A stretch of DNA of 64,000 bases from an uncultured Thermoplasmatales archaeon (lineage in GTDB: Archaea > Thermoplasmatota > E2 > DHVEG-1), in the NCBI GenBank assembly GCA_964618505.1, contig CAZUBH010000008.1, positions 15,257 to 79,256 on the forward strand. Reading direction: 5' to 3'. Of this stretch, positions 22,186-60,815 are shown piece by piece; positions within the stretch are counted from its first letter, which is position 1; each line of letters starts with the position of its first letter. A program made the translations under genes and the position numbers. The notes under the pieces were generated by a model. That model searched no databases and was not told where the DNA came from. It saw only the letters and a program-made list of their open reading frames with translations.

Positions 22186-22992
22186 TTAGGTTTCAGTAGG
22201 AAATCCTGCTTCTACCCAGGCCCTGTAGTTACCTTCAAGTCTATATGTATTTTTAATACCTGCATCAACCAAGGTTTGTGCGCTATCTGTTGATGGGGGA
22301 TCCGTATGACAATAAACTAGATATGTTCCATTTATGTCAAGATTAGAAACTTCTTCTTCTAATGTTCCATCAGCCCATACATAATTAACTGCACCGGGCA
22401 AATGACCCAGACTATAAATATCAAGACCAACAACATCGATTACCAAATCAAACGTATCGTTCATTAATAAAGAATACGCTTTGTCTGGAGGGATGTCTAT
22501 GTAAGTATCTTTCATATCATATATAATGCACAATAAAAGAAAACATTGTTTTTGAGCACTTATCATTTCAGTCTCATTTGCTTTTGCCTGCAAGCTCATA
22601 TATACTCTTCCAAAACCTCTAGGACTTGGCATTGTGGGGCTTAGATAAGGTCTTAATACAATCGTTATTTCTTCACCAGCTTTAAGCTCATTAATTACCT
22701 GGCTACATACATCTCCTTTGCCAATAATAGCTGTAATAACGGCTTTTGTACTAAAACACCAATTTATGTTTGTTAAATCTTCAGAACCAGTATTTTTAAA
22801 AGTTAGTTCAACTCCCCTATATAAAAAACCTGGTTCAATAGCTAATTCTAGGCCATAGTTTTCAGTTCTTGTTAAAGATTCTTTTTTTGTAGTAATATTT
22901 TTTGGTAAATAAGTTATTGAACTACCTATTGTTGTAGAGATCAATATTAAAAAAATCAATCCAACAATCATTTTTATATAAATATTTTTCAT
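22186..22992 (-). CDS. Secreted two-domain protein: the paralogous N-terminal domain (shared with 18846..19856) plus a C-terminal rhodanese-like domain.
   Basis: Signal peptide. The rhodanese-like region reads LVIDV...GHLPGAVNYVW...YLVYCHTD...AWVEAGFP, but the CRxGxR active-site loop is non-canonical (CHTDPPS). Confidence 0.5.
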   Translation of the reverse strand: MKNIYIKMIVGLIFLILISTTIGSSITYLPKNITTKKESLTRTENYGLELAIEPGFLYRGVELTFKNTGSEDLTNINWCFSTKAVITAIIGKGDVCSQVINELKAGEEITIVLRPYLSPTMPSPRGFGRVYMSLQAKANETEMISAQKQCFLLLCIIYDMKDTYIDIPPDKAYSLLMNDTFDLVIDVVGLDIYSLGHLPGAVNYVWADGTLEEEVSNLDINGTYLVYCHTDPPSTDSAQTLVDAGIKNTYRLEGNYRAWVEAGFPTET

Positions 22993-39290: not shown

Positions 39291-40355
39291 TTATAAATCC
39301 CAGAAGGGAACAATGTCGCAACACCCACAGTTATGACACATTGTATTAAAACTTTTTGTCGTTAAATCATTTTTTTCTAAAATTTTTTTATGATTTCTAG
39401 ATAGATAAATCATTCTATCAACATCTACATTGGGCAATTCACAAGAAAGTGATTTTTTCAAATCATCTTTATTTTCACCATTTATTCTAATCTTTCTTAA
39501 TGTAGGAACAACTCCCATGCCTGATAACTTTTTGATGGTTTTTATTATGCTTTCATTTGTTTCTCCAAGTCCAAAGATTATATTGGAACAGACCTTCCCT
39601 CTTCCAAAAACTTTTACCGCCTCTTTAAGCATATTAAATGTCTTGTTATAATCTAAATTTGGACATACCTTCTCAAATAATTCTTTACTGGACGCTTGAA
39701 CATTTATCTTTATTTCATCAAAACCAGATTTTTTAAGATTTGTTAATTCACTCATTTTAAAAATGCAAGATTCAACACCAAATTTAGAACCTGGAATTTT
39801 GTTTCTGACGCCTTCTACTATATAGCACATGTCTTCTACAATTTTTTCATTATTAGGATATACACCGCTTGTGATGGCTATGTTTTTTATGCCACTTTTT
39901 TTTGAGGATTTTAAAATATAATCCACATAATTTTTCTTATCATAATTTTTTGTTTTTTCTTTTTTATCAAAAAAGCAAAATGCACAATTAAAGATACACT
40001 TGTCAGCTAAATTTATAAAAATCTGATTTGGAGCATGATATAATACCGGCAGGATTCTGACATTATTTATAAAAATTTTATTATGCTTTAAAACAGAATA
40101 AATACCATTATTTTCTACTAAAGAAAATCTAGCTTTTTTATTTTTAATAACTCGAAGTTTTATATTGCTTTTATTGAAACAAAATCCTACATTTTTATAA
40201 GAAGAGCTTGGTCCTGCAGAAGATTTATCGTAAGGATAGGGAATTGGTATGCCTCTTTCTATAAATATCTCATCGTCTTCTAATAATTCTGCTTTTATTC
40301 TTAAATTTGCACAATTTTCCACGGATTTCAATAACATAATTGATACTAAAAACAT
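39291..40355 (-). CDS. Radical SAM domain protein.
   Basis: CIFNCAFC (Cx3Cx2C) cluster-binding motif and a C-terminal Cys-rich patch HNCGCCD. No subfamily could be assigned. Confidence 0.65.
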   Translation of the reverse strand: MFLVSIMLLKSVENCANLRIKAELLEDDEIFIERGIPIPYPYDKSSAGPSSSYKNVGFCFNKSNIKLRVIKNKKARFSLVENNGIYSVLKHNKIFINNVRILPVLYHAPNQIFINLADKCIFNCAFCFFDKKEKTKNYDKKNYVDYILKSSKKSGIKNIAITSGVYPNNEKIVEDMCYIVEGVRNKIPGSKFGVESCIFKMSELTNLKKSGFDEIKINVQASSKELFEKVCPNLDYNKTFNMLKEAVKVFGRGKVCSNIIFGLGETNESIIKTIKKLSGMGVVPTLRKIRINGENKDDLKKSLSCELPNVDVDRMIYLSRNHKKILEKNDLTTKSFNTMCHNCGCCDIVPFWDL

Positions 40356-40867: not shown

Positions 40868-41797
40868 ATGAATATTTCTAAAGTTAAAATTATATCATTT
40901 TTCATTCTTTTTCCTCTAATATTTGTAGGATGTTTAGAGCAAAAATCAACTGTTGAAAAAGAAGATGCAATTGAAAAAAATGAAAACATTCTTCCAGAAA
41001 CTTCAATTATTTCAAATACAACAAATGGCATAGCTCCGTTAAGTATTTTTTTTACATGCGATTGCAAAGATTCAGATGGAGAAATTGTAGGTTACTTTTG
41101 GTCTTTTAATGATGGTAACTTTTCCAATCAAAAAAATGTTACTCATACTTTTGAAAAAGCAGGGATTTATGAAGTTTTTTTGTTAGTTACAGATAACAGT
41201 GGAGCTATATCCAATGATACAGTTCTAATCGAGGTTAAACCAAAAATTGCTGAGTGGACTTTATCTCTTATAGGTGCTAAAACAGAAATTATTAATCGAA
41301 GTACTTTTGAGGGTTTTGTATCCGCATATGGAGAATCTTCTTGGGAGGATGAAGGAAATCTTTGGACAGGAATTCCTTTGTGGATTTTAGTATCAATTGT
41401 AGACGATGTCGAAGACAAAGATTATACTTTTAACGAAGATTTAGCAAATCTAGGTTATGAAATCAAAATTACAGCAGGTGATGGATGGATAACAAATCTT
41501 TCAAGTAAAGACATAATAGAAAACCAAGGATATTTGGTTGTAAATAAATTAAATGGAGAGCCTCTCCCAAAATATACACCTAAAGGAAAGCCAAGTTGGC
41601 CTCTTCACTTAAGAGGCGATGAGGTTGTTTGTCCCAACAATGTTGGTAATATTACTGCTATTGAATTAATAGACCTACCAGACGTCAATGAAACTAAAAG
41701 ACCATTCTTTTCAAATATTAAATATTTTTTTAAAAATCTTTTAGAAAATTGGATACAATTTTTTTCTGATATTTTCTCATTTATAAAAAACAATTAA
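40868..41797 (+). CDS. Putative lipoprotein with a PKD domain.
   Basis: Signal peptide plus lipobox FVGC. The PKD-like region reads ISNTTNGIAPLSIFFTCD...WSFNDGNFSNQKNVTHTFEKAGIYEVFLLVTDNSG. Confidence 0.5.
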   Translation: MNISKVKIISFFILFPLIFVGCLEQKSTVEKEDAIEKNENILPETSIISNTTNGIAPLSIFFTCDCKDSDGEIVGYFWSFNDGNFSNQKNVTHTFEKAGIYEVFLLVTDNSGAISNDTVLIEVKPKIAEWTLSLIGAKTEIINRSTFEGFVSAYGESSWEDEGNLWTGIPLWILVSIVDDVEDKDYTFNEDLANLGYEIKITAGDGWITNLSSKDIIENQGYLVVNKLNGEPLPKYTPKGKPSWPLHLRGDEVVCPNNVGNITAIELIDLPDVNETKRPFFSNIKYFFKNLLENWIQFFSDIFSFIKNN

Positions 41798-42264
41798 AAA
41801 ATTCTAGGTATTATTCTATAAGGTACTTTTTCCATATATTTTTCATAATCCTTTCCATATTGTCTAATTAAAAGTTTTTCTTCATCAATTATACTCCAAA
41901 TAATTAGAGGAATTTCAATAATTGCTATTATCAAGGCAAATAGTGAATAAAAAAATAAAGCAAGACCAAATCCAATTATAACTAAGGAGGTATAGTGAGG
42001 ATGTCGTATTGTTTTAAAAATTCCTTCTGTTACAAGCTGGCCTTTATAGGCCTTATGCCAAAAAATTTCCCATTTGAAATAAACAAATGTTCCTATTAAA
42101 AATACTACAATGCCACTTAATATTGTAAAAATCATGTTGAATGGTATTTTCCAAACACCAAAAATTGCGGTTAAAGGACCAGTTAGGATTATTAATAGAA
42201 TAGGCGAATAATGTGCTATAAAAAGTGCTCTTAGAGTTTTTGGTGGCCTGTAGTCTAAAAACAT
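41794..42264 (-). CDS. Isoprenylcysteine carboxyl methyltransferase (ICMT) / phospholipid methyltransferase family membrane protein.
   Basis: A 156-aa protein with 4-5 TM segments carrying the EGIFKTIRHPHY and RHPxY signature of the ICMT/PEMT family. Confidence 0.6.
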   Translation of the reverse strand: MFLDYRPPKTLRALFIAHYSPILLIILTGPLTAIFGVWKIPFNMIFTILSGIVVFLIGTFVYFKWEIFWHKAYKGQLVTEGIFKTIRHPHYTSLVIIGFGLALFFYSLFALIIAIIEIPLIIWSIIDEEKLLIRQYGKDYEKYMEKVPYRIIPRIF

Positions 42265-42269
42265 GTGTT

Positions 42270-43034
42270 TTACACTAGTTTAATTCCACCAGATCCTATT
42301 TCAAAATCTTGTGGTTTTAATGTGTGTTTTGTACTGCGCATTTTTAAAACCGCAAGTTTTCTTCTATCCATTGTTGGATCAACACTCAAAACAATTACTG
42401 CATCTGCTAAAAATTCAGAAAGACCATCTCTTGACATACTTTTTGAGTTTGAAGGCAGTTCCGATGTAACAATAGATGTGCATCTTGCGGTTTCTAAAGC
42501 GTTCATAATGTAATGAAGATGAAGCCTTCTTATTGGAAAGTTGCCATCTGAAGAAAACTCTTCAGGGTTTATTATGTTAATATCGTTTGATTTGGCAATG
42601 TCCATATTATTAATGTAAATTGGCATTTCAGATAAAGGAGTAATTGAATCTAAAACTACACGATCCCAATCTCCAGATAAAATTTCATTTGTCATTGTTT
42701 CATAAATCAATTTCTTGTTGATATTTAGAAATAAAAATTTAACTTGCCCACTGTCTATTGCAGGTTGAAAATCAATATCTAATTCTTTTGATTGAGTTAA
42801 AAGCCCTTCTACTTTTTTGTCAAGTGTTAAAAATAAACATCTGTCTCCTTCTTCAACTCCTTGACGTAGAAACTGAGAACATAATATTGTTTTACCCCCT
42901 CCAGGAGGTCCTGAAACTAGCGTTATTGTTCCTTTGGGTATCCCTCCAGATATTACTTCGTCAAGACCAGGTACACCTGTTTTTACTCTTTCTACCTTAC
43001 TTGTCGTTGCTTTTTCAGTATGAACTAATGACAT
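42270..43034 (-). CDS. KaiC-like single-domain RecA-superfamily ATPase (KaiC-A).
   Basis: GVPGLDEVISGGIPKG; Walker A GPPGGGKT; Walker B RVVLDSIT; catalytic IVTSE. Confidence 0.75.
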   Translation of the reverse strand: MSLVHTEKATTSKVERVKTGVPGLDEVISGGIPKGTITLVSGPPGGGKTILCSQFLRQGVEEGDRCLFLTLDKKVEGLLTQSKELDIDFQPAIDSGQVKFLFLNINKKLIYETMTNEILSGDWDRVVLDSITPLSEMPIYINNMDIAKSNDINIINPEEFSSDGNFPIRRLHLHYIMNALETARCTSIVTSELPSNSKSMSRDGLSEFLADAVIVLSVDPTMDRRKLAVLKMRSTKHTLKPQDFEIGSGGIKLV

Positions 43035-43171
43035 AAAAAAAGGTATATAGTAGCGTGTATAACTATTTTACTTTTTAGGGCTAATTTTATTCTAATATAT
43101 TAATTTTTATGCAAATATTTATATATTTACTAAAATAAATATAATATGGGAAAAGCTCGACGTGTGAAAAA

Positions 43172-43396
43172 ATGTCTAGAAATTTAAAGATATGGATGTG
43201 GATTCAAAACAATCATTTGATTAAGGCCATATCAAATATGGATACTGGAACACTTACAATTTATGACGAAAACGATAATGTACTTGTTAAAAGAACAGGC
43301 CTTTCTAGACAGCAAATTAAAAAAATTGAAATAGTTTTCTCTCATTTTAGTGCAAAAAAATTAGACAAAAATCAGGAACCCTGCACATACCTATAA
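43172..43396 (+). CDS. Small conserved protein S1 of 74 aa; paralog of 47152..47397.
   Basis: KIWMWIQNN...GTLTIYDENDNVLVKRTGLSRQQIKKIE aligns with KTWTWLKSK...GTIEVLNEKGEILIRKTNLSRRQVENVE of the second copy. Confidence 0.45.
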   Translation: MSRNLKIWMWIQNNHLIKAISNMDTGTLTIYDENDNVLVKRTGLSRQQIKKIEIVFSHFSAKKLDKNQEPCTYL

Positions 43397-44158
43397 TATT
43401 GAAACTTGTCTATCGGGATAAACTTCTATGCCATTATTTGTAATTTCCATTCCAAAAATCTTTTTTTGATGATTTGAGTATCTCATTTTTAAAATTTCTA
43501 TAGCGTTTTCTCTTCTATCTCCTCTCTGGATATTGTATAAAACTACAATTCCATCTGCAAGAAACTCCTCGATTCCAGAATCGCTAAATTTTTTTGGAAT
43601 TTGCTCTGTTTCTGTAACTAAGAATGAAGTAGCACCCGTATCTTGAAAAAAACTGAAAAGTTGTTGCAGGTAAACTCTATAATTTTTTTCTTTTGAAATT
43701 GATGCCGATATTACAGCAGTAAGAGAATCAACCACAATTAATTCTGGATTGAAATCCTTGGGTATTATTAAAGGTTTGATTTTATACGAAACTTCAGTTG
43801 CAGATCCAGAGCCTCCAAGAGAACCAAATTTCATTCTAAGAATATCTAAAGGATTAATTTTTTGAACAAGAAATCTACCTTCATCGATATGGCTTTGAAC
43901 ATCCCAACCAAATACATTCATGCTTCTTTTAATTCTATCAATAGATTCTTCAAAACTTACATACATACAATTTTTTCCTTTAGAAATCAGATTATAACAC
44001 ACTTGTCTACAAAAGGTACTTTTTCCCGTCCCTGTTCCGCCAGCAATTAAAACTGAATTTTTTTTAGGTATGCCTTGATTTGAAAATAGACCATCGAATC
44101 CTTTGATATCTGTTTTTAGTGCATCTTCGTTATTTGTCTGATAACTGCCTTCATCCAT
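43391..44158 (-). CDS. KaiC-like single-domain RecA-superfamily ATPase (KaiC-B); FlaH/ArlH-like.
   Basis: IKGFDGLFSNQGIPK; Walker A AGGTGTGKST; Walker B LIVVDSLT; catalytic LVTETE. Confidence 0.75.
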   Translation of the reverse strand: MDEGSYQTNNEDALKTDIKGFDGLFSNQGIPKKNSVLIAGGTGTGKSTFCRQVCYNLISKGKNCMYVSFEESIDRIKRSMNVFGWDVQSHIDEGRFLVQKINPLDILRMKFGSLGGSGSATEVSYKIKPLIIPKDFNPELIVVDSLTAVISASISKEKNYRVYLQQLFSFFQDTGATSFLVTETEQIPKKFSDSGIEEFLADGIVVLYNIQRGDRRENAIEILKMRYSNHQKKIFGMEITNNGIEVYPDRQVSIL

Positions 44159-44176
44159 ATAATAATCTCACAAATT

Positions 44177-45064
44177 TTATTTAATCCATCCTGGCCCTAT
44201 TTGGACATAATATTTTAATACTTTCAAATATACATTTAATTTTCCGCCAGGATTTATATTTTCTATTACCACTCTTGAAGGTTGATGTTCATCTTCACTG
44301 TTTATTACCGTAATTTTTAATAAATCTGAGGATTTTTTAAGATCCTGAAAAGATTCATTCCAAGCATTTGGAAAGTATGTGTTTATTGTAATATTGTCCA
44401 TGTTGTTCCAAAGGGTCTGTGGATTTCCAGTTTCTCTTGAATAGTTAACTCTAATCATACATTTCCCCCATCCTGAGGTCATATTCTTTTGGTCACTAAT
44501 GCCTATGTGAACAGGCAAAGTAAAAGAAACCTTTGGAGGATTGCCTTCGTCCAATGAAACTGAAGCACTTGCACGCGATACCGATTTTCCTGTTGGTTGT
44601 TTAACAAATACTCCTCCGCCTTCTAAAGCATAAGTCTGATCAACAAAATAATAATTATGTGACTCAAATTTTACTGATGTAAGATCAAATTCGGTAGGGT
44701 TGAATATACTCCATAATGTAATCTTACAATTCTCATCCTGAACAATACTTAAATCACCAGTTGCTCTTGCCGTCACAAAATATGGTAGTTCCCTACTTCC
44801 AAGTGTAATCATAGAAGTTAACGGGTCTGAGGAATTTGTCATCTGTTGGATATTCATCATTGATTTTAAATATGTAAATTGATTTGAAATAACATCCATA
44901 TGCTCGGCTTCTTTTTGCTCCATAATCTCTGGTATGTATACAAGTTGTATTGTTGAAAGAATAATAGCTACTAGTGCTACTAATAAAAGAGCCTCAATTA
45001 CACCTGCAACAGCATTATTTTTTGAAATTAAATCTATTTTTTTCATCTCTCCAGTCTTTTCCAT
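44177..45064 (-). CDS. Membrane-anchored protein with a type IV pilin-like hydrophobic N-terminus and a beta-rich extracellular domain.
   Basis: The N-terminus KKIDLISKNNAVAGVIEALLLVALVAIILSTIQLV resembles archaeal pilin/ArlF-G class III signal regions. No canonical cleavage motif was confirmed. Confidence 0.35.
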   Translation of the reverse strand: MEKTGEMKKIDLISKNNAVAGVIEALLLVALVAIILSTIQLVYIPEIMEQKEAEHMDVISNQFTYLKSMMNIQQMTNSSDPLTSMITLGSRELPYFVTARATGDLSIVQDENCKITLWSIFNPTEFDLTSVKFESHNYYFVDQTYALEGGGVFVKQPTGKSVSRASASVSLDEGNPPKVSFTLPVHIGISDQKNMTSGWGKCMIRVNYSRETGNPQTLWNNMDNITINTYFPNAWNESFQDLKKSSDLLKITVINSEDEHQPSRVVIENINPGGKLNVYLKVLKYYVQIGPGWIK

Positions 45065-45106
45065 ATTGTTTGACTATAACTTATATTTTTTCTAAATAAA
45101 TTTCAT

Positions 45107-46993
45107 TTATTTTTTCTTTAACCACAATAGAAATAACCCAATTGCACTAATAATTATTAAAACTTCAAAAACCACAATAAAATGAAATGGAATTTGTAAA
45201 GAAATCCCTTTAACAGATTGACCCGCGTCATCATTTTTTGAACCAGTTTCTGATATTATTACATAGGTTTGTGTAGTTGAAGTTGATTGGTTGTCATCTT
45301 TTATTGTCAATGAGACAGTAAAATTACCATAGCTTTGATATTTGTGGCTAGTTGTCGACCCTTCACCATTTGCCCCATCACCAAAATTCCATAAATATTG
45401 AATTATCTCTCCATCTTCATCAATACTAAGCGTTCCATCAAAATTAATATCTTCATCTATTTTTGCATAATAGGGGCCATTAATAATTGCTGTTGGTTTG
45501 ATATTTTCTGATATTTCTTCCTTGCTAATAGCTAAATTTTGGGTTACTTGTGTAGACCATTTTTCATCATTATCTTTAACCTGAAAATATATTGCATGAT
45601 TACCAATAGATAAATCAGATGTGTTAAAAGATTTGTTTGTACTTATTATACCATCAATACTTGAGGTCCATTTCCATCCTATGATTTCGCCATCGTCTGT
45701 ACCATATCCATTAAAAGATATTGTTTCACCTATTAATGCAGGATTGGGGTTAATTGATTCAATAAATGCTATTGGTTTTTCATTTTGTTTAGGATTAATT
45801 GTTAATGATTTTGATGTTTCTGAAGACCATTCTCCATAATCATCTTTAACTTTAAAGTAAATAGTATGCTCTCCAACAGATAAACTTGATTTTGTAAACG
45901 AACTTGAACTGCTTAAAAAACCATCGATGTTTGAACGCCAATTATAATCGGTTATTATACCATCTGAGTCTGCCCCACTACCACTAAAAGAAATCTCATC
46001 TCCATAATAAGCTACATTAGGCGATATGCTAGGTTGATGAGCTGTGGGGGCTTGATTTTGAGGATCTACCGGATCATCTTCTTGTAAAAAATAACCTAAA
46101 GGGTAGTTATCGGTGTTGCTTCCACCAGGTATTTGGTAAGCAGAGTCTCCAATGCCATCTTCATTAGAATCATAATCGTTGTAGTCGTCCCAATAATTTC
46201 CCTGATTTGCACCATTGTCCCATGAATTTGAAAATGGATCGTATGCATTTTCGCTATTGTCTGTAAAATCATTATTGTAAAAGGTATTGCTTGAAGAGGA
46301 TTGGGATAAATATACTCCAAACCCAGTATTTTGGCTTAGTGTATTTCCGATGATATTATTGTCTATTGAAAATGAAGAAAGCTTAATTCCATTCCCATTT
46401 TCATTTATTACGTTATCTTCAACAGTATTTCCTGTTGAAAACTCTATATGAATGCCACTAACTGCATTGTTTGAAATAATATTATTGCTAATGGTAAGAG
46501 AGTTGCAATCAAATAAAGAAAATCCTTCTCCCTGATCACTATTAATTATTCTGTTATTTTCAATAACTGAATTTTCAACTTTAGACATTGTAAGACAATC
46601 AAATCCGGATCCGCCCGCATTTCTAATTGTAAGGCCAGAAATTGATACCTCGATGTGATCACTACCCACAACTTCTATAACATGACCATTGCTTCCGCCA
46701 TCAATAAAAGTATTATCCCTACTTTGTCCGGTTAGTGTAAGGTCTTTTGTTATTTCGATTTTTTCATTGTATGTTCCTGAATAGATATATATTGTATCTC
46801 CTTCATCTGCTTCAGAAATTGCTGAATTTATGTCCATGAAAGGATTTTGTTGAGTTCCATCCCAAGGCCCACTGTCATTATCATCATCAACATATAAAGT
46901 GTTTCCAGATGCTTTTGATAAGTTCGTTGATGTGCTTAAAATAAATAATAGAAGAATAATCGAAAATAAATTAATAAGACTAAGTTTGTGCAT
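45107..46993 (-). CDS. Surface protein with a signal peptide, a NosD-like right-handed beta-helix, three PKD-like domains and a C-terminal TM anchor.
   Basis: Beta-helix repeats (GLTIRNAGGSGFD, NNIISNNAVSGIHIE, NVINENGNGIKL) with the GNYWDDYN...DGIGD motif. PKD-like repeats (YFKVKDDYGEW, YFQVKDNDEKW, SLTIKDD). C-terminal TM segment FIVVFEVLIIISAIGLFLLWLKKK. Confidence 0.65.
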   Translation of the reverse strand: MHKLSLINLFSIILLLFILSTSTNLSKASGNTLYVDDDNDSGPWDGTQQNPFMDINSAISEADEGDTIYIYSGTYNEKIEITKDLTLTGQSRDNTFIDGGSNGHVIEVVGSDHIEVSISGLTIRNAGGSGFDCLTMSKVENSVIENNRIINSDQGEGFSLFDCNSLTISNNIISNNAVSGIHIEFSTGNTVEDNVINENGNGIKLSSFSIDNNIIGNTLSQNTGFGVYLSQSSSSNTFYNNDFTDNSENAYDPFSNSWDNGANQGNYWDDYNDYDSNEDGIGDSAYQIPGGSNTDNYPLGYFLQEDDPVDPQNQAPTAHQPSISPNVAYYGDEISFSGSGADSDGIITDYNWRSNIDGFLSSSSSFTKSSLSVGEHTIYFKVKDDYGEWSSETSKSLTINPKQNEKPIAFIESINPNPALIGETISFNGYGTDDGEIIGWKWTSSIDGIISTNKSFNTSDLSIGNHAIYFQVKDNDEKWSTQVTQNLAISKEEISENIKPTAIINGPYYAKIDEDINFDGTLSIDEDGEIIQYLWNFGDGANGEGSTTSHKYQSYGNFTVSLTIKDDNQSTSTTQTYVIISETGSKNDDAGQSVKGISLQIPFHFIVVFEVLIIISAIGLFLLWLKKK

Positions 46994-47151
46994 TCAAATC
47001 CCTTCCATCTCTCATTTGTAAGATTAGATAGTTACTATATATAAATATGATGGTGAAAAACGTCAAAACGTAATAATATTTTAACTAGCTATAAGGGGAA
47101 TGTTTATAAAGGTACAAATTAACATCAATTTGTAAGTGAAAAGTGACCCTG

Positions 47152-47397
47152 ATGAAAAGCGAAAAAACCTGGACATGGCTTAAATCAAAAGGAAAAATCT
47201 TTAAGATCATTTCAAACCCGGCGAAAGGAACAATTGAAGTCTTGAATGAAAAAGGTGAGATTTTAATTAGAAAAACAAACCTTTCTAGAAGACAAGTTGA
47301 AAATGTTGAAAAAAATTTTTTAAATATGATTTCTAAAAAATCAAATGAAAACTGTGAATTAAAATCAAATCAAAATTTTGACCCCATGATAGCTTAA
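47152..47397 (+). CDS. Small conserved protein S2 of about 81 aa; paralog of 43172..43396.
   Basis: See S1. The start is chosen at the ATG that aligns with the S1 start; the ORF track used the GTG at 47143. Confidence 0.45.
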   Translation: MKSEKTWTWLKSKGKIFKIISNPAKGTIEVLNEKGEILIRKTNLSRRQVENVEKNFLNMISKKSNENCELKSNQNFDPMIA

Positions 47398-47426
47398 CAT
47401 TGAATTCTTTAGGTTATAAATAGAGC

Positions 47427-49442
47427 CTAATTTCTATTTTTTTTTATTTTTTTCACTAAAGCAATAGTTATCAGTAAGAAAAATAATGGTAAAATTTCAA
47501 ATCCAGGAGTTGGTTTTGATATAGTTGGCTCTGGCACTTTCAACGGCTCTGAGGATTCCAGCTTTTCATAGATAATTGCATATGTAGATTCAATCACAAA
47601 AGTATCGTTTTTATCTGACACTATTAAATTAATTGAATAATTTCCAGATTTTGTATATCTATGGATTGGGTCTTTTATATTACTTGATGAATTATCTCCA
47701 AAATCCCAGTAATAAGTGTAATTTATATTTTTATTATCTGATAAATTGCCACCGTTTGTTTTTATATTGTCTTTTCCTGTCAAAATTAATATAATTTCAG
47801 TAATGTTGCAATGAAATTGAATGCTTTCATTTTCATATCCAGAATATGGCCCTCCTAAATCAACAAAAAATGATATGCTTGAAAGGGACATGTTTGATTC
47901 ATTTTCGTCATTTAATTCAACAATAACATATGTTGTATCAATATCCGTTTCTCCTGAATCATCTTTTACCTCAAGGCTAATAGTATGGTTTCCTGGTGTA
48001 AATGATTTTGTTGCTGTAGAAAAACCTAGATACATTTGATATTCCCCAAAACCATCATTTTCAAAATCCCATCTATATAACAAATTCTCTCCATCAGGAT
48101 CATAACTTCCCGAAGCATCAAAAACAACAGTTTCGGATTCACTAAAATATGGCCCTCCTGCATCAGCGATAGGAGGAATGTTGTCTTCGTTGTCGGTGAT
48201 AGTAACAGCGGCCGTATCTGTATCAGTTGCTCCTTCATCATCTTTTACTTCGATTTTTACAGTATAGATGCCACTTTCTGAATAGCTGTGGGAAAATGTA
48301 TTAGGCGGAAACCATCCTGTGTCATAAACACCATCATTTGTCCAATCCCATCTATAATATTCAATAATACCATCAGTATCTATACTATTTCTACCATCAA
48401 AATATATTAGTTCTTCAATTTCTGCACTATATGGCCCCCCTGCATCAGCTATTGGCGGTTGGTTTATTTCATTAAATATACCCAACGGATACCTATCTTC
48501 TCCATTACCCCAATAGATTTCATATGCAGTGTCTCCAATGCCATCTTCATCTGCATCAACTCCTTCATAATCATCCCAATAATTACCACCTAAGGGATAT
48601 CCATTGTCCCATATATTGTTTATACCATAATTTTTAACATTATTGTTAGGATAATTATTATCATTGAAATGATTGTAATAAATCTTATTATTTGAAGAAT
48701 ACGTACTAGCGAGTAGTCCTCCATCAATATTATTTTCGATATAATTTCCAATAATATCTGAATCATCACCATCTAATATTATACCAAATCCATTATTATT
48801 TATAACATTATTATTGGATATTTCAACATCGGAGCAAGATTGCCAAATCTTTATGCCATGATCGTTTTGAGAAATTGTGTTGTAACTGATTGTATTTTCA
48901 GAACCAGAGGAGATACCAATTCCAGGATATCCATTATTCTCAATAGTATTAGAATTAATTGAATTATAACTTCCAGATATCCAAATTCCCCCAAAACCAT
49001 TACCGGGATACTCAAGACCATTTCCTGAAATAATATTGTTCTGAATACTATTAGAATCCGAAGATACTTTGATACCGCAAGCAGAACTACTGCTCCCTCC
49101 GTTAACAATTGAAAAACCGCTGAGCGAAATCCCATCTTCATTTAATTGAACGGGCCAGTAATAATCTTCTGAATCTATAATCGTTGTTTGTTTGTTTTCT
49201 CCAGTTATTGAAATTGATATGTCAACAGCGATGTGTTCATAATAAGTACCGCTATAGACATAAATCGTATCGCCATTACTAGCTGCATCAATAGCATCTT
49301 GAATACTTGTATAATCTAGTCCACCATCATCATCAACATAAATTGTATCAGAAGCTTTAATAATATTATTTGAAAATCCAGAATAAATAGTTACGCCCAT
49401 AAGAAAAAAAACTATAAGAATTATTATTTGTTTTTTCATCAC
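47427..49442 (-). CDS. Surface protein with a signal peptide, a NosD-like beta-helix, PKD-like domains and a PGF-CTERM archaeosortase sorting signal.
   Basis: Beta-helix repeats with GGNYWDDYEGVDADEDGIGD. The C-terminus KPTPGFEILPLFFLLITIALVKKIKKNRN is the PGF-TM-basic tripartite signal. Confidence 0.7.
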   Translation of the reverse strand: MMKKQIIILIVFFLMGVTIYSGFSNNIIKASDTIYVDDDGGLDYTSIQDAIDAASNGDTIYVYSGTYYEHIAVDISISITGENKQTTIIDSEDYYWPVQLNEDGISLSGFSIVNGGSSSSACGIKVSSDSNSIQNNIISGNGLEYPGNGFGGIWISGSYNSINSNTIENNGYPGIGISSGSENTISYNTISQNDHGIKIWQSCSDVEISNNNVINNNGFGIILDGDDSDIIGNYIENNIDGGLLASTYSSNNKIYYNHFNDNNYPNNNVKNYGINNIWDNGYPLGGNYWDDYEGVDADEDGIGDTAYEIYWGNGEDRYPLGIFNEINQPPIADAGGPYSAEIEELIYFDGRNSIDTDGIIEYYRWDWTNDGVYDTGWFPPNTFSHSYSESGIYTVKIEVKDDEGATDTDTAAVTITDNEDNIPPIADAGGPYFSESETVVFDASGSYDPDGENLLYRWDFENDGFGEYQMYLGFSTATKSFTPGNHTISLEVKDDSGETDIDTTYVIVELNDENESNMSLSSISFFVDLGGPYSGYENESIQFHCNITEIILILTGKDNIKTNGGNLSDNKNINYTYYWDFGDNSSSNIKDPIHRYTKSGNYSINLIVSDKNDTFVIESTYAIIYEKLESSEPLKVPEPTISKPTPGFEILPLFFLLITIALVKKIKKNRN

Positions 49443-49475
49443 ATCTCTCCAAATTATTAATAATTTTATGCTTAA

Positions 49476-50699
49476 TTAATACATGCGGTTTTTTTCAATT
49501 TTAAAAAAGAAGGGGGAAGAATTACTCCAAGGTTTGATTAAAGGATAATTATCTTGATTATCCCCACCAGATATGTTGTAAGGCGTATCTCCAATGCCAT
49601 CACCATCTTCATCTGATCCAGTATAATCAATCCAGTAATTTCCTGACTCTCCGTCATCCCAAGTATTTGAACCAGTATCGTAAGCAGTTTCCCAACCAGC
49701 TCCTAAAAAGTTATTATTTACAATAGTATTGAAATCCGAGTTTAAATGAAGATATATATTTCTAAGACTACAAAATCCAATAGTATTACTTCTAATAATA
49801 TTGTTCGGCGAATGTTCAAGTAGTATTCCAATTTGTGAAATATCTGAAAGTAAGTTATAATCAATTAAACAATTTGTAGATAATTCTAAAGCAACTGCAT
49901 AAGTACATTGTTTAATTTCGTTATTAATAATTGAAACATTAGATGAATCTTGTACTAAAATACCTGCTTTATAAGCTCCACTATTTTGAATTGTAAATCC
50001 ACCAATAACAACAGAATCTGCTAGAATATCAACTACATGGTCTTGGTTATTACCATCAATGAAAACAAGACTTTTATCATGGCCTATCAACATTATCTCT
50101 TTATCTATTACAATATTTTCAAAATATAATCCATCATCAACATGAACTGTACCTTGTTCAGCTACAACATCTATACCATCTTGAATTGTATCAAAATGAT
50201 CAAAACCCCAACCAGTAGTATTTTCATTAAAATCATCATCAATATAAACATAATCTGGAGCTGAAGATTGTATAAACACCTGAAATTCATAAGAATCGTA
50301 TATAATTTGTTCTAAATAGTCTCCACAAAAAATTATATATTTATATTCGCCAGCTGAAAAATCTTCAGGTATTGATTGGGTTATTTCCATGCTTATTCCG
50401 CCATAAGGTCTAAGTCTAATATCCATAAAAGATTTAATCGGACCTAAAAAATGACCATTCGGCTCATGTTGGTACATAATCCACGCATCAACAGTTATAA
50501 ATTCAGCTTCAAAATTTCTTAACATGCCTGTATATTTGAATGATTCTCCCTGATAAACTTCTATAGGTAAATCAATCAAAATACAAATTCCTACATCATT
50601 AGTACTTGATATAGCGATTGGGATTATTGGTAGAAATAAAAGTGTTACCGTAAGTCCCAAAATGCATATTTTTCTAAATTTGTTTTTCATCTTTTTCAT
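49476..50699 (-). CDS. Secreted protein with an N-terminal about-120-aa domain (paralogous to 50848..51276) followed by a NosD-like beta-helix.
   Basis: Signal peptide. The beta-helix region reads GGFTIQNSGAYKAGILVQDSSNVSIINN and GNYWIDYTGSDEDGDGIGD. Confidence 0.55.
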   Translation of the reverse strand: MKKMKNKFRKICILGLTVTLLFLPIIPIAISSTNDVGICILIDLPIEVYQGESFKYTGMLRNFEAEFITVDAWIMYQHEPNGHFLGPIKSFMDIRLRPYGGISMEITQSIPEDFSAGEYKYIIFCGDYLEQIIYDSYEFQVFIQSSAPDYVYIDDDFNENTTGWGFDHFDTIQDGIDVVAEQGTVHVDDGLYFENIVIDKEIMLIGHDKSLVFIDGNNQDHVVDILADSVVIGGFTIQNSGAYKAGILVQDSSNVSIINNEIKQCTYAVALELSTNCLIDYNLLSDISQIGILLEHSPNNIIRSNTIGFCSLRNIYLHLNSDFNTIVNNNFLGAGWETAYDTGSNTWDDGESGNYWIDYTGSDEDGDGIGDTPYNISGGDNQDNYPLIKPWSNSSPFFFKIEKNRMY

Positions 50700-50847
50700 C
50701 TCCTTCTCATTTATCTAATCTGGCACCGCCAAAATTTCTTTGATTAAATTTTGGATTTCAGCATATAAAAGCTTTATTTGATGAATATCGAAAGGATAAG
50801 AAATGTAAAGAAAGATTCTCCATTTTTGAATTAAAAATTTTAATTAT

Positions 50848-51276
50848 CTATATTACATTAACAAGAATCTCATCGGTATCATATACAGTGTCTGGATATA
50901 CGCCAATATGAGTCCTATATTTGTAATAAGGCTCACTTGGAGGAAAATCTTCAGGCACATCCTGAATTAAATTACTGAATCTAAAACCATCAAAAATTCT
51001 AACATTTTTAAATAATTTTACAGGACAAATATACTCGCCATTAGGACCTTCAACTGTAATCCAAACATCATGAAATACATATGTTCCATATCCTTCATAA
51101 TCCCAAATAACTAATATATAATCAAACGACCCTCCAGGATGTACACTAATTTCTTCAATTCCATTAAATCTTACAAATACTTTATCTGTGCCAGCTTGGC
51201 ACGTGATGCTGCATGAGATGGTCAACATAATTGTAATCAGACCTAACAAATTTAAAGTCCTATATCTTTTCATCAT
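50848..51276 (-). CDS. Small secreted protein of 142 aa; stand-alone paralog of the N-terminal domain of 49476..50699.
   Basis: Signal peptide. GGSFDYILVIWDY...EGPNGEYICPVKLFKNVRI...DVPEDFPPSEPYYKY aligns with GESFKYTGMLRNF...HEPNGHFLGPIKSFMDIRL...SIPEDFSAGEYKY. Confidence 0.45.
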   Translation of the reverse strand: MMKRYRTLNLLGLITIMLTISCSITCQAGTDKVFVRFNGIEEISVHPGGSFDYILVIWDYEGYGTYVFHDVWITVEGPNGEYICPVKLFKNVRIFDGFRFSNLIQDVPEDFPPSEPYYKYRTHIGVYPDTVYDTDEILVNVI

Positions 51277-56624: not shown

Positions 56625-59600
56625 TTACATCCATGCGTCAAGACCAGTTTGTTGGGTAGGCATTTCAACGGATAATCCAAATGCTCCTTGTATGTAATTT
56701 TCAATCATTTTTTTATACCAATCAAGATCAATTTCGTTTGTAGATTTTAGATAGTCAATTGGACACATGTAATCAATGGGTTTTACACCACTTTTAGATG
56801 GGTTTGTTATACCTGGAAGAGGTCTTTTTGTGACAACAAATTTAAGTTTAGCTCTCGATTTTATCTGTCTTCCAATTACTTTTTCTAGGGCCATTGCTCT
56901 TTTAGCAAAAGTAGAAGGGCTTCCGTCTTGATTTAATTTATATCTTCTTGCCGGCTGAACAGACTGAATTAATGTTAAATCCTCTATATCAACTGTTGAT
57001 AAGTCAAGTTTTTCTAAAACTTCTTTTGTTTTTTCCATTATAGCATTTTTTACAGATTTTCTTGCTTCTTCTTCATCATCCCAAGATGTATTCTCCTTTA
57101 TTACTTTAATCATGATTTCTTTTAGAACTTTCCTTGCAATGTTTGCTTTATCAGAACCTTTAAAATTGTTTCCTTTTGTATTCATTTCTAGTTTGCCATT
57201 TTTACTATCAAAAATTAAATAATTCTTATGTTTTACAAAAATCATTGAATCGTGTTTTTCAGGTTCTAGTTCAAAATCAGGATAATTTAAATCTTTTTGC
57301 CATTTTTTATTACAATCTTCAATCGCATTTAGGGCTATCTCTGGCTTTGTTATCCATTTATCTTCATTAATTTCAATATTCAAACTTAAAGATTTAGAAA
57401 TTTCAGTTACATTTCCAGCTGATTTAGAACATCCAAGATAAATTCCATCCGTATCTCCATATACAACTCTTATACTTTTTTTCTTTAAGTAATCTAAAGC
57501 ATCTGCAAGAATAATTTGTCCTTTTGTTGTAATTGCGGCTGCACCCCACAAATTAAATTGCCTACCTGTAACAGTTGGTGCAGAAAGTATTCCATGTGTA
57601 TTGTGTAAAATAATCCCTCCGTTTGCATCTATAAAATTTTCATTTCCTTCTATACTTAGGTCATATACATATTCAGAACTGGGATCAACATATTCTATAT
57701 GTTTTGGCGGGATAGCATAACAATCGTTACATGATTGTTTGTTACCTTTGTAATAACCAATCATCCTTGTGTTATACGTCTGATCATATTGCCTAAAATA
57801 TGTGTTGGTTTTTACACCCCATTGTTTTTGAAGTGTTATTAAATCCGCATTTAGACTTTGGCTATTTGTTGTGAATCTTCCATGTGGTACAGAAGATGGC
57901 ATTGAAAACTTAATATTACCATCACCTTTCATATATGCATCAAAAAATGCTCTTCTTACCGGTTCTTTAGAAGATAGTATTTGCCAAGGAATTTGTTTAC
58001 ATCTACTTGAGCTACCACATGATAAAATGCTATCAAAAAGATAATCAACAATTTTAGCATGAAGTGTTGACACATAAGTATGTGCATCTTCAAGCCTATT
58101 TATTGTATAAACTGGGGCGCCAAGAATCTCATTAGAAAGTTTTCTAATTCTTTCATGCATTTCTTTTTGTGAATTTGAAAAAGTTATATAATAGCTAGAA
58201 TGGCCATTTACCACCTTTCTTGAAGTGTGGCCTTCAGATATATAATATCCAATAAGTTCTGCTAATCTTTCATCAATAGAAATTTTTGATTTTATTCTGC
58301 TTGATTTTCTTCCATTTGATCCAACGGTAATATAATCATATAAATCATCTTTAAATTGAATATTTTTAAGTTTATCGAGAGGTACTTTAATATACGGCAA
58401 AAGAACGCTATCTTTTAACTTTATATTCATCAATTTATTTTTTAGCCTGCTATTAAAATGAATAAGATCATTTTTTTCGATAAAAGCAAAGAAATCAGTA
58501 CTATTTGCTTCCTTGCATAAATTGATATCGTGTTTTTTTTCAATGGAGGGAATCTTTTCTACATGAGCTAAAAGTGTTTTTTCATTAATTTCTGCTACGT
58601 TAATTTCTTGCATTCCTCCATCTTTTATAGTAAAAACACTATGATTTGGAGTAACTACGGTAAAACCACTTTTGGTAGTAATTTTAATAAGTTTTTTTGA
58701 CCATTTATGCCGAACGACTTGCTTTATTTTTTTTATTTCAGCTTTTCCATTTTTATTTACAGATATTGCTTGCCAATTCTCATCAATTTCTGAAATTTCA
58801 AACTGTGTTCCGTTAATATTTTCAATTCTACAACCTTTCTGTATAAAGGAATCAACGAATTCTCCAATAGGTTTATTGATCAAGTATCCGTCTGGTGAAA
58901 CTAATATCACTTGTTGGCCATAGTCAACACTTCCGGCATTACGAGCACCTTTCATGCTTTGATACATCATTTTGAGCCTGTTAATTTCAGATTTATCATT
59001 TTTATTTTTAGACTCTTTTAATTCTTGTTTTATTTTTGAAATCATATTCATAATGCCAGTCATTGAAAGATTAACGACACCTGGTTTTCTGTCTATTTTA
59101 ACACCTATCATATATCCTTTATCTGCATAAGAGTCGGCGCTTTCTACTTCTCGCCAGTTGACATCGATCTCATTAAAAAACTGTTTAGGCATCTTTTTAA
59201 GCCATATCCATTCATCAGGTTTTTCGTTTTTACAAGCAAGTTTTACAGTATCTGCGCCAATGTTCAAAGCTTTCAATATAGTGGGATACATTGCACCAAC
59301 ATCGGCAACTAAAACGTAATACCAAGGTACAAAATGAGAATTAGCATCTTTATCTGGTTTTATTGTCATTCCGCCAGGCATATGATAACTTATTGTATCG
59401 TCTGAATCTTTTGGATTTTCGTTAAATACAACATATGGGCATTCCACCCAATTAGGCATCTCATTACCATATTTAATAACTCTTAAAACATCCTTTGCAA
59501 GCATATCCTTTTGTTTTTTTGCTTTACTTACAATTTCGGATTTTGTGTTACAATCTCTAAAATACTTAGTTAGATTTTGTGTGATTGATTTAACTCTACA

Positions 59601-60815
59601 TATGGGCGGCATAATTTTTTTATGTTTACTACTTCTTATCATCGACATGTGGTCCCACATATTTACCGCGCCAGATGGAAGAAGCATATCAAATGGCATA
59701 CATGTTGTAAATGCAAGGGGCAAAGCTTGTTGTATTAGATTTATTGTTACTCCGGTTTGTTCCTGTATATCTTGCTTATTGTATTTCATTGTTCTTTTAT
59801 CTAGTTTTATTTCTGATGGACTAAGATAAACCCTGTCTTTTATGTCAATTCCAAGAAAAGGTGCCAAAAATTTAAGTCCATACTCGTTCAAGAAAGGATA
59901 AAATTTTCTTGCTGCAAGAAATGTATCAAAATTTGAAGGATACATTTGTACAACATCCGTACCAGTTCCAAAATGAAAACTTTTGTCTGATTTACAATAA
60001 TTATTTACGAAATAATGCAGTTCTTTTTTTTCTTCATTTGATATTTTGCTATGATGTTCTTTTAATAACAACTTTATTCTATTATATAATTGGATATTGT
60101 CAAAGCCTGTTATATTGTGTCCTGATATAATGTCGTATTTTTTTGCCACCCTGCAAAATTCTGTGATATTCTTTATTTCTTCATCAATGTTTGGAGAGAC
60201 AAGTTGCTTTATTTCTATGTTCTCAAAATCAGAAGGACAATCAATTATTTCAAAACTAAATTCTTCCGTTTCCAAGTCCTTTTTTGATTCAAATTTTATT
60301 TTAAAATCAGAGTAACCTATTATATCTATGGGTATGTCGCTTTTCCCTTCAGAAAATTGAGTTGTTTCAATATCATAAATTAATACTTTTAAATCCTTTT
60401 TTTGTCCTTTGGAATCAAAAATCCACCCCATATCTTGAGCAGCTATATCTGTTAAAGATCGTTGCTGATAGGGTATATCATGTTCTGCAGTAAAAACCCC
60501 ATGTTCAAAAAATAAATAGTCACTCACTTCAGGAACAAAATATGACTCTTTTGTAAAAACTTTGAATACATTTCTTTTCTGTTCAAAATCACAAAAACTT
60601 CTATATTCTTCAATTTCTCCAAAATCAATTATTTTTGAAAGTTTTTCATGATTATTTTTATTTAAATTCCAACGTTCAATTAATTCTTTTCTTTTTTTTT
60701 CAGCACTTTTTTCTTGAGGAACGATAGCTAAAAAATACGGATTGTGAACATCTGAAATTTTCTTTGGTTTTTCATTTTGAAAATAAAGCGAATCTTGAGA
60801 TATTCCTAGTAACAT
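56625..60815 (-). CDS. polB: Family B DNA polymerase (PolB) interrupted in-frame by one 444-aa LAGLIDADG intein.
   Basis: Exonuclease motifs YDIETT and SGHNITGFD. Motif A is YYVLVADVGAMYPTIL, motif C is VVYGDTDGIYL. The extein is 952 aa in total. The intein lies in the motif B region (see the separate intein feature). Confidence 0.9.
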   Translation of the reverse strand: MLLGISQDSLYFQNEKPKKISDVHNPYFLAIVPQEKSAEKKRKELIERWNLNKNNHEKLSKIIDFGEIEEYRSFCDFEQKRNVFKVFTKESYFVPEVSDYLFFEHGVFTAEHDIPYQQRSLTDIAAQDMGWIFDSKGQKKDLKVLIYDIETTQFSEGKSDIPIDIIGYSDFKIKFESKKDLETEEFSFEIIDCPSDFENIEIKQLVSPNIDEEIKNITEFCRVAKKYDIISGHNITGFDNIQLYNRIKLLLKEHHSKISNEEKKELHYFVNNYCKSDKSFHFGTGTDVVQMYPSNFDTFLAARKFYPFLNEYGLKFLAPFLGIDIKDRVYLSPSEIKLDKRTMKYNKQDIQEQTGVTINLIQQALPLAFTTCMPFDMLLPSGAVNMWDHMSMIRSSKHKKIMPPICRVKSITQNLTKYFRDCNTKSEIVSKAKKQKDMLAKDVLRVIKYGNEMPNWVECPYVVFNENPKDSDDTISYHMPGGMTIKPDKDANSHFVPWYYVLVADVGAMYPTILKALNIGADTVKLACKNEKPDEWIWLKKMPKQFFNEIDVNWREVESADSYADKGYMIGVKIDRKPGVVNLSMTGIMNMISKIKQELKESKNKNDKSEINRLKMMYQSMKGARNAGSVDYGQQVILVSPDGYLINKPIGEFVDSFIQKGCRIENINGTQFEISEIDENWQAISVNKNGKAEIKKIKQVVRHKWSKKLIKITTKSGFTVVTPNHSVFTIKDGGMQEINVAEINEKTLLAHVEKIPSIEKKHDINLCKEANSTDFFAFIEKNDLIHFNSRLKNKLMNIKLKDSVLLPYIKVPLDKLKNIQFKDDLYDYITVGSNGRKSSRIKSKISIDERLAELIGYYISEGHTSRKVVNGHSSYYITFSNSQKEMHERIRKLSNEILGAPVYTINRLEDAHTYVSTLHAKIVDYLFDSILSCGSSSRCKQIPWQILSSKEPVRRAFFDAYMKGDGNIKFSMPSSVPHGRFTTNSQSLNADLITLQKQWGVKTNTYFRQYDQTYNTRMIGYYKGNKQSCNDCYAIPPKHIEYVDPSSEYVYDLSIEGNENFIDANGGIILHNTHGILSAPTVTGRQFNLWGAAAITTKGQIILADALDYLKKKSIRVVYGDTDGIYLGCSKSAGNVTEISKSLSLNIEINEDKWITKPEIALNAIEDCNKKWQKDLNYPDFELEPEKHDSMIFVKHKNYLIFDSKNGKLEMNTKGNNFKGSDKANIARKVLKEIMIKVIKENTSWDDEEEARKSVKNAIMEKTKEVLEKLDLSTVDIEDLTLIQSVQPARRYKLNQDGSPSTFAKRAMALEKVIGRQIKSRAKLKFVVTKRPLPGITNPSKSGVKPIDYMCPIDYLKSTNEIDLDWYKKMIENYIQGAFGLSVEMPTQQTGLDAWM
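57600..58931 (-). mobile_element. Intein (444 aa) in polB motif B (region III) with a LAGLIDADG homing-endonuclease domain.
   Basis: The intein begins with Ser: NAG|SVDYGQQVILV. Block B is TPNH. Two LAGLIDADG-type motifs are present (LAELIGYYISEGH and FFDAYMKGDGN). The C-terminus is ILHN|THG with the +1 residue Thr. Both junctions keep the frame (N-extein 628 aa, C-extein 324 aa). Confidence 0.8.

Follow-up and report, generated by a model that had tools for sequence, protein, structure and literature searches.

A conserved pair of KaiC-family ATPase genes and a neighbouring type IV pilin-like gene in uncultured Thermoplasmatota

A 64,000-nt stretch of DNA from an uncultured Thermoplasmatales archaeon (assembly GCA_964618505.1, contig CAZUBH010000008.1, positions 15,257 to 79,256; hereafter the window, with a GC content of about 31%) carries two single-domain KaiC-family genes, KaiC-A and KaiC-B, near a gene for a type IV pilin-like membrane protein, PIL. 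This neighbourhood was analysed in the window and in its relatives, which are uncultured Thermoplasmatota metagenome-assembled genomes (MAGs), including SG8-52-3 and three closed chromosomes. A first-pass annotation made from the letters of the window had listed the genes of the region, and its coordinates and domains were borne out by Pfam, NCBIfam and the open reading frames (ORFs). Two small plus-strand genes, s74 and s84, had been missed. Each is divergently transcribed from one KaiC operon, s74 from that of KaiC-A and the methyltransferase and s84 from that of KaiC-B. The features are given below in the coordinates of the window.

41794-42264, minus strand: PEMT/ICMT-family membrane methyltransferase, 156 aa (PF04191, 38.9 bits; PF04140, 26.9 bits)
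42270-43034, minus strand: KaiC-A, single-domain KaiC-family P-loop protein (PF06745, 150 bits)
43035-43171, no strand: s74/KaiC-A divergent intergenic region, with motifs TATATAAATATTT..ATA and ATAAAATAAT-TATACACGC in an alignment of 62 species loci
43172-43396, plus strand: s74, 74 aa, unannotated family, between the KaiC genes, divergent from KaiC-A and convergent with KaiC-B
43391-44158, minus strand: KaiC-B, single-domain KaiC-family ATPase (PF06745, 183 bits)
44177-45064, minus strand: PIL, type IV pilin-like membrane protein, 295 aa, with a pilin-like N-terminus and a likely start at 45046
45107-46993, minus strand: BH628, secreted NosD-like beta-helix and PKD adhesin-like protein with a C-terminal transmembrane (TM) anchor (Pfam NosD, Beta_helix and PKD)
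46994-47151, no strand: s84/BH628 divergent intergenic region, carrying the 11-mer TATATAAATAT at 47038-47048 (plus strand)
47152-47397, plus strand: s84, about 81-84 aa, paralog of s74, upstream of the 628-aa adhesin gene and divergent from the BH628-PIL-KaiC-B operon

Conservation of the neighbourhood was determined in two sets of loci. The first set was obtained by a pattern scan with the PIL gene in one genome per GTDB species and comprised 80 loci, all from Thermoplasmatota MAGs, which were analysed by tblastn and by unbiased ORF clustering; the denominators 72, 60 and 66 used for this set are the numbers of loci with enough flank. For the second, reciprocal set, metagenome contigs were scanned with KaiC-B-specific peptide patterns, and 80 loci were kept in which KaiC-B was 73-82% identical to that of the window. 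Within the species loci, KaiC-B lay directly 3' of PIL in 65/72, so that the expected co-localisation of KaiC and pilin-like genes in relatives was confirmed. KaiC-A was present in 54/60 of these loci, the methyltransferase gene in 55/60 and antisense s74 in 50/60. In the reciprocal set, KaiC-A, the methyltransferase gene and antisense s74 followed KaiC-B in 47/47 loci. PIL preceded KaiC-B in just 47/63 loci of that set, indicating that PIL is facultative. Divergent aconitase-family LeuC/D-like genes were found upstream of PIL in 40/66 species loci. The genes downstream of the module were variable, with the ribosomal L3 operon often nearby (29/48). The beta-helix/PKD genes had been grouped with the KaiC and pilin-like genes, but they are not part of the conserved unit: a beta-helix adhesin gene lay upstream of PIL in just 22/66 species loci. 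Where a same-strand gene preceded PIL, it coded for a beta-helix protein in 29 of 33 loci, and 43 loci had no such gene, indicating that the adhesin is a recurrent but optional partner. Across the 80 species genomes and the 80 metagenome loci, the invariant core consists of KaiC-B (with s84 divergent from it) followed by s74 and, divergent from s74, KaiC-A with the methyltransferase gene. The adhesin and pilin genes appear to be facultative cargo within the KaiC-B transcription unit, with PIL before KaiC-B in about 75-90% of loci and an adhesin in about a third. As a conserved set of genes, the module is specific to one lineage of Thermoplasmatota. The locus is read here, with middling confidence, as a KaiC-based regulatory module that is genetically coupled to a minor-pilin/adhesin cassette and is not a new assembly machine.

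KaiC-A and KaiC-B each consist of one domain of ~255 aa, and both scored well above the PF06745 cut-off of 26.6 bits. Their best matches in the Protein Data Bank (PDB) were KaiC proteins (E 1e-36 to 1e-48), that of KaiC-B being KaiC CI (E 2e-48). Circadian two-domain KaiC models (TIGR02655/PRK09302) were failed by both, with 64-129 bits versus 408-546, and every NCBIfam archaeal KaiC subfamily model stayed below its cut-off. The pair had been described as KaiC/ArlH-like, of which only the KaiC part stood: the ArlH model NF052589 gave 50 and 64 bits versus a cut-off of 215, and FlaH in the PDB matched with E values of 1e-5 to 3.5e-5. Intact Walker A, Walker B and catalytic Glu motifs had been assigned to both proteins. 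Both Walker motifs are indeed intact in each, and KaiC-B has the Glu pair; its conserved motifs are Walker A GGTGTGKST, the catalytic EE (FEES), Walker B VVDS and LKMR. In KaiC-A, TLDKK stands where KaiC-B has SFEES (D72/K73 versus E70/E71), with D72 aligned to the RecA catalytic Glu, and the family alignment showed this substitution to be kept in 62 orthologs. At 26% identity, KaiC-A and KaiC-B are old paralogs, one with Asp-Lys replacing Glu-Glu. A nearly invariant, subfamily-specific segment rich in Ser, Thr and Gly, NPLDILRMKFGS.GGSGSATE.SYKIKPL.IP, was also observed at residues 101-133 of KaiC-B. This segment, located before Walker B and past the strand that follows the catalytic Glu pair, could be a pore loop, an interface loop or an autophosphorylation site. 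A division of KaiC-B and KaiC-A into CI-like and CII-like proteins was dropped, since the domain-level matches were inconsistent.

For PIL, 631 homologs were found at E <= 0.001, and those few that carried names were Thermoplasmata/Thermoplasmatales MAG proteins, all from Thermoplasmatota. The family alignment and hhalign place the likely true start at Met7 (45046). The invariant N-terminus of the family consists of MKxRKF, ~5 residues and [AG]↓[VIL]AGVIEALLLVALV, with a buried invariant Glu; in the window protein an MK-rich n-region precedes the hydrophobic helix A↓VAGVIEALLLV, of which GVIEA is invariant in the family alignment. The hydrophobic N-terminus is followed by a highly conserved polar helix, EQ(R/K)EAEHMD...NQ. 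The AF2 model (pLDDT 84) has an N-terminal helix at residues 8-76 and then an all-beta domain. Conserved N-x-S/T sequons in the beta-rich body (N194-x-T196, N207-x-S209 and N236-x-S238) suggest that PIL is an extracellular N-glycoprotein. The signal layout of PIL is that of the Pilin_N pilins encoded at two pilus loci of the lineage, L084 and L019, namely MKANRIFIEGEEEA↓VSAVIGVILMV, NNSA↓VSEIIGG (MKNYVFYANNSA↓VSEIIGG) and NPYA↓VSEVIGG. None of these signals has K/R at -2, which is canonical in class III signals elsewhere. PIL was placed in register with the pilins of L084 and L019 by hhalign (E 0.003-0.013), and the pilin-like character first ascribed to it was upheld by a class III-type signal in this lineage-specific form.

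Several database results weigh against a pilin assignment of PIL. Pilin_N (PF07790) reached 14.3 bits versus a threshold of 25.2 (E 0.077), the window protein did not match DUF7289 (PF23960, threshold 27), and a Foldseek search of the PIL model against the PDB yielded nothing at E <= 0.001 and hence no strong match to any solved pilin fold. Among the homologs, P0010 (29.4 bits) and P0028 (30.0) exceeded the DUF7289 threshold, while P0006 (24.7) and P0029 (18.1) fell below it. PIL relatives match the full DUF7289 model (positions 1-238) at 25-30 bits, and a hydrophobic N-terminal helix and an all-beta body are common to both; however, the window PIL fails the model and the PIL family has invariant motifs of its own, AVAGVIEALLLV and EQ(R/K)EAEHMD. 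PIL is best read as a type IV pilin-family protein and is probably a minor pilin. Tandem duplication of PIL was seen in L030, L060 and L066, with two copies before KaiC-B. A divergent PIL subfamily was found in L078-L081 and L083, where two matching segments lie ~450 nt (~150 aa) apart, fragments of Ig/PKD-rich proteins precede the gene and no KaiC gene is near it. In L078-L080 the divergent PIL gene is followed on the opposite strand by a gene for a 633-aa P-loop protein, archaeal Lon-like by eye, and in L079 and L080 SMC/ScpA/ScpB-like genes, also judged by eye, come next.

Neither a T2SSE nor a T2SSF gene was found among the window ORFs scanned, and no T2SSE motif occurred within 10 kb in the 80 species loci, in line with the first-pass statement that the window has no ArlI or ArlJ. 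In the closed relative genome CP070798.1, the KaiC module lies at 1.03 Mb and a complete type IV pilus locus (L084) at 820-841 kb, 200 kb away. L084 codes for an A24/FlaK-like peptidase, a 149-aa Pilin_N pilin, a FlaI-superfamily ATPase that scores below the FlaI cut-off, two T2SSF proteins and a Pilin_N+Laminin-G protein; its Pfam domain matches include no archaellin family. At L019, two T2SSF (TadC-like) genes and genes for a Pilin_N+Laminin-G protein and a DUF11-like protein are followed downstream by paralogs of the adhesin and PIL genes. This context and that in CP070798.1, together with the signal layout, indicate that PIL belongs to the pilin family and would be served by a peptidase and machinery encoded elsewhere; the context in relatives is decisive here. 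The possibility that the two T2SSF ORFs of L019 are one frameshifted tadC was rejected, as their relatives are single-domain proteins of 260-300 aa and L084 has two separate genes. The first 1.5 kb of L019 (positions 1-1540) code for a GC-rich protein, unlike the AT-rich remainder, and adjoin a T2SSF gene whose start falls within its domain. The probable cause is chimeric assembly or the insertion of foreign DNA, which would hide the upstream ATPase gene.

The first-pass annotation had likened the locus to the ArlF/G-ArlH arrangement. A gene for a membrane-anchored, beta-rich protein of the pilin superfamily followed directly by one for a KaiC-like single RecA domain does superficially recall arlF/G-arlH, and the module could on that ground be a displaced fragment of an archaellum operon, coding for an ArlF/ArlG-like stator protein and ArlH. 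This origin is highly improbable. The family tests failed, both for ArlH (50-64 bits versus 215; FlaH at E ~1e-5 versus 1e-48 for KaiC) and in the structural comparison of PIL with solved ArlF/ArlG or archaellin beta-sandwich domains. ArlI, ArlJ and archaellin genes are not nearby, KaiC-B has all its catalytic motifs and matches KaiC CI far better, and the distal locus of CP070798.1 has Pilin_N pilins and the below-threshold ATPase described above.

The KaiC pair had also been proposed to form a hetero-hexamer that couples ATP hydrolysis to assembly or regulation of a non-archaellum surface structure. As a motor, this hexamer would itself power a novel structure of PIL and the beta-helix/PKD adhesins, without an ArlI/PilB-type ATPase. 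The lack of T2SSE and T2SSF genes near the module and the close and conserved association of the KaiC paralogs with a pilin-like gene would fit such a motor. It was nevertheless judged very unlikely, because full machinery and a peptidase are encoded elsewhere in CP070798.1, so that the KaiC pair need not be an assembly motor, and because adhesin and PIL paralogs lie inside the L019 pilus locus. KaiC-A is furthermore without the catalytic Glu pair, most loci have no adhesin gene, and a quarter of those found with KaiC-B have no PIL. Known KaiC, ArlH and GvpD proteins act as switches, and no KaiC-family protein is known to drive pilin extraction. The preferred reading therefore keeps the KaiC pair as a regulatory element and leaves pilus assembly to machinery encoded at a distance.

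The small proteins s74 and s84 are 34% identical (E 4e-13), and their coding signature is clear (codon-position entropies 0.97/0.72/1.48). Both share a conserved core of W-x-W, GT and (K/R)RTGL, and s74 orthologs end in EPFxFL. The predicted fold of s74 (pLDDT 85) has four strands and a helix, followed by the conserved, disordered C-terminal EPFxFL tail. Neither protein matched Pfam or NCBIfam, and the resemblance to the WGR domain was weak and without sequence support. A search of 1.84 billion representative proteins with the s74 profile yielded 123 relatives only, nearly all of them stand-alone proteins of 55-100 aa; no informative fusions were seen among them, and cluster look-ups yielded no names. 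In the intergenic region between s74 and KaiC-A, the boxes TATATAAATATTT and ATAAAATAATTATACACGC were named as candidate divergent-promoter elements. The conserved motifs at 43035-43171 are probably the two archaeal promoters and possibly include an operator. The 11-mer TATATAAATAT occurred three times in the window versus 0.43 expected, at 43115-43125 (minus strand), 47038-47048 (plus strand) and 22975-22985 (plus strand), of which the first is located between s74 and KaiC-A, the second between s84 and BH628, both divergent intergenic regions of the module, and the third at the 5' end of a minus-strand ORF (22186-22992). A sigma-70 promoter and terminator scan of the window gave counts equal to the shuffled expectation, under a model that is not applicable to archaea.

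The methyltransferase passed the Pfam thresholds of 25 bits for PF04191 and 24 bits for PF04140, and the motifs RHPxY and EE..L...YG..Y..Y are visible in its sequence. The equivalog model for protein-S-isoprenylcysteine O-methyltransferase (NF040696) was failed, with 52 bits versus 160, and only the C-terminal 82 residues aligned. The gene had been reported to overlap KaiC-A; in fact a spacer of 5 nt separates the two in the window, and the median spacer is 11 nt in 62 loci. The methyltransferase gene is translationally coupled to KaiC-A. A role of s74 as CaaX substrate of the methyltransferase was rejected, as 'CTYL' is found only in the window copy and the family consensus is EPFxFL. A radical SAM protein gene, weakly LipS2/variant-rSAM-like, lies at 39291-40355 on the minus strand of the window, where two plus-strand genes (PKD309 and p143) separate it from the methyltransferase gene. 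Some 10 related loci, among them the most divergent of all (L082), have it directly 3' of the methyltransferase gene, and it may be an older member of the KaiC block.

Taken by themselves, KaiC-B, KaiC-A, s74/s84 and the methyltransferase might constitute a previously unrecognised, order-wide KaiC signalling device, in which the active and the degenerate paralog form a split two-ring assembly or a mixed hexamer, the small proteins take the partner or output role that KaiB has for cyanobacterial KaiC, and the methyltransferase is the effector. The small proteins would dock via the EPFxFL tail and/or bind the palindrome-containing promoters, and possible methyl acceptors of the methyltransferase are a lipid head group and the pilin N-terminus that processing newly exposes. 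Methylation of this N-terminus, if true, would make the enzyme functionally analogous to the bacterial PilD methyltransferase, which archaea are not known to have. This version was considered unlikely.

In the preferred reading, that of a regulatory module coupled to a pilin/adhesin cassette, PIL would be processed by the A24 prepilin peptidase of the lineage and would then enter a pilus, in which it would probably present the adhesin as a minor or tip subunit. Assembly of such a pilus would fall to the FlaI-superfamily ATPase and the two TadC-like platform proteins that are encoded separately. In this reading the KaiC pair would be a nucleotide- or phosphorylation-dependent switch and not a motor, comparable to ArlH acting on ArlI, to CirA of Haloferax and to the KaiC proteins of euryarchaeal pilus loci. 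The small proteins s74 and s84 would be adaptors or DNA-binding regulators at the conserved divergent promoters, and the membrane methyltransferase would be an effector or anchor of the switch. Together these components would set the expression or display of the pilin, with or without the adhesin, so that the cassette in the KaiC-B operon would be what the switch controls or reports on.

Precedents for parts of this arrangement have been described. ArlH modulates the motor ATPase in a manner that depends on nucleotide and phosphorylation, and the same mode of action is proposed for the KaiC pair. KaiC-family ATPases (arCOG01171, arCOG01174 and arCOG01175) have been found in or next to archaellum and clade 2 pilus loci and were predicted to be regulators; the clade 2 systems have a 'signature minor pilin' of 250-550 aa that is all-beta (Makarova, Koonin & Albers 2016, PMC4858521). 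The present module shares with these systems single-domain KaiC genes linked to genes with class III signals in a euryarchaeal lineage, and PIL resembles the signature minor pilin. It differs in that the KaiC genes adjoin a lone pilin gene and not ATPase or TadC genes, that two old KaiC paralogs occur, each with a small unannotated protein, together with a PEMT/ICMT methyltransferase, and that the block is also found without the pilin. In Haloferax volcanii, the KaiC-like protein CirA has been linked experimentally to type IV pilins in a motility control circuit (PMC10983859), a single circuit through which a surface structure is regulated. According to the abstract of that paper, however, the tie is a genetic one, through suppressor mutations and not through gene position, in another organism and with archaellum transcription as output. 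The CdiP pili of Thermoplasmatales have a platform split into two T2SSF proteins and pilin genes far from the machinery operon (PMC12448462), and the PilA pilins of Haloferax are likewise served by a peptidase and machinery encoded elsewhere (PMC4858521). CP070798.1 is similar to CdiP by arrangement, with two T2SSF proteins and pilin genes remote from the machinery. In contrast, KaiC appears in PMC12448462 only in the title of a reference on ArlH, and neither a KaiC pair nor small partner proteins nor a methyltransferase is described there alongside the pilins.

A number of observations weigh against a functional coupling of the KaiC pair to pili. The link is drawn from gene content, conservation, signal layout and the pilus loci of relatives, and the switch role is inferred. 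The KaiC/s74/methyltransferase block was kept without PIL in 16/63 loci of the reciprocal set (L096, L101, L110-112, L115, L120, L123-124, L128-130, L138, L148, L150 and L154), and s84 is directly divergent from KaiC-B where both the adhesin and PIL are missing. Some of these loci have a beta-helix remnant of 170-525 nt between s84 and KaiC-B (470-525 nt in L111, L112, L129 and L130), suggesting that the adhesin and pilin cassette was deleted. Conversely, PIL paralogs without KaiC were found in L019, L036 and L078-83, and the genuine pilus locus L084 has no KaiC gene. The block without PIL and the PIL paralogs without KaiC indicate that the coupling is not obligatory. The spacer between PIL and KaiC-B has a median of about 130 nt and is often 120-210 nt, so that co-transcription is not assured. 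Identity to the window proteins across loci was 56-81% for KaiC-B, 54-77% for KaiC-A and 59-76% for the methyltransferase, versus 34-51% for PIL and 72-83% for ribosomal L3. The conservation of KaiC-B thus comes close to that of a ribosomal protein, a pattern more in keeping with a central function in the cell than with control of an accessory pilin. Synteny moreover extends over the whole region in the lineage, with the L3 operon retained downstream, and some of the adjacency is therefore only inheritance.

Several of these observations favour the main rival explanation, adjacency without shared function. In that case KaiC-B, s74, KaiC-A and the methyltransferase gene would serve housekeeping, as a module for signalling or maintenance that has nothing to do with pili; examples would be a global regulator of the KaiC type and a nucleic-acid module of RecA-superfamily and WGR-like proteins. 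The pilin/adhesin genes would be a passenger that landed between a promoter and KaiC-B. This explanation is a serious possibility, although it probably does not hold. PIL and KaiC-B are adjacent and co-oriented in 65/72 species loci, down to 34% PIL identity and in two different upstream contexts, and extra PIL copies occur together with a module copy on one contig in L036 and L041. Associations of KaiC genes with pilus genes also recur independently in other archaea (PMC4858521), and the WGR likeness required by the second example is weak. Regulatory coupling to the pilin/adhesin cassette accordingly remains the reading put forward here.

The combination had not been recognised as a described system. 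This was only partly right: that KaiC genes are in general linked to those of type IV pili has already been published (PMC4858521), whereas this particular module was not found in a literature search, and searches on DUF7289, on Thermoprofundales with pili and on KaiC with ICMT yielded nothing relevant. The module is distinguished by the KaiC pair with its Asp-Lys paralog, the new small-protein family, the coupled methyltransferase and the facultative pilin/adhesin cassette. No new secretion or assembly machine is revealed. KaiC paralogs are many in archaea, and very few of their partners and outputs are known; the module offers a compact and strongly conserved case with candidate partners. 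The proposal that KaiC-like ATPases are archaeal signalling hubs controlling pili becomes testable in a concrete system, and one that occurs in uncultured sediment and freshwater Thermoplasmatota, for which particle attachment is ecologically relevant.

Beyond the conserved module, three further surface or secreted proteins are encoded at 47427-51276.

47427-49442, minus strand: BH671, beta-helix surface protein with three PKD domains and a PGF-like C-terminal anchor (Pfam)
49476-50699, minus strand: BH407, beta-helix surface protein, outside the conserved module (Pfam)
50848-51276, minus strand: p142, secreted 142-aa protein, paralog of the BH407 N-terminal domain, outside the conserved module

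BH671 is a lineage-specific neighbour outside the conserved module and is missing from most related loci. A PGF-CTERM signal had been assigned to this 671-aa protein, which no model supports: NCBIfam gave no PGF-CTERM match at E <= 0.01, and the sole match to a C-terminal sorting model was Heimdall-CTERM, with 19 bits versus 24. A PGFEILPLFFLLITIALVKKIKK motif, with PGF, a TM segment and a basic tail, is visible by eye at its C-terminus. The p142 protein is 29% identical to the N-terminal 140 residues of BH407 (E 3e-12). Other exoproteins encoded in the window include an 897-aa CARDB/Big-domain protein (6553-9246, plus strand) and an S15 X-Pro dipeptidyl-peptidase with a C-terminal PKD domain (4414-6459, plus strand). 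PKD-tagged exoproteins are common in the genome, and PKD proteins near the module are therefore not significant by themselves. Also observed was a gene for a 1396-aa family B DNA polymerase (56625-60815, minus strand), which is interrupted by an intein with a LAGLIDADG endonuclease domain.

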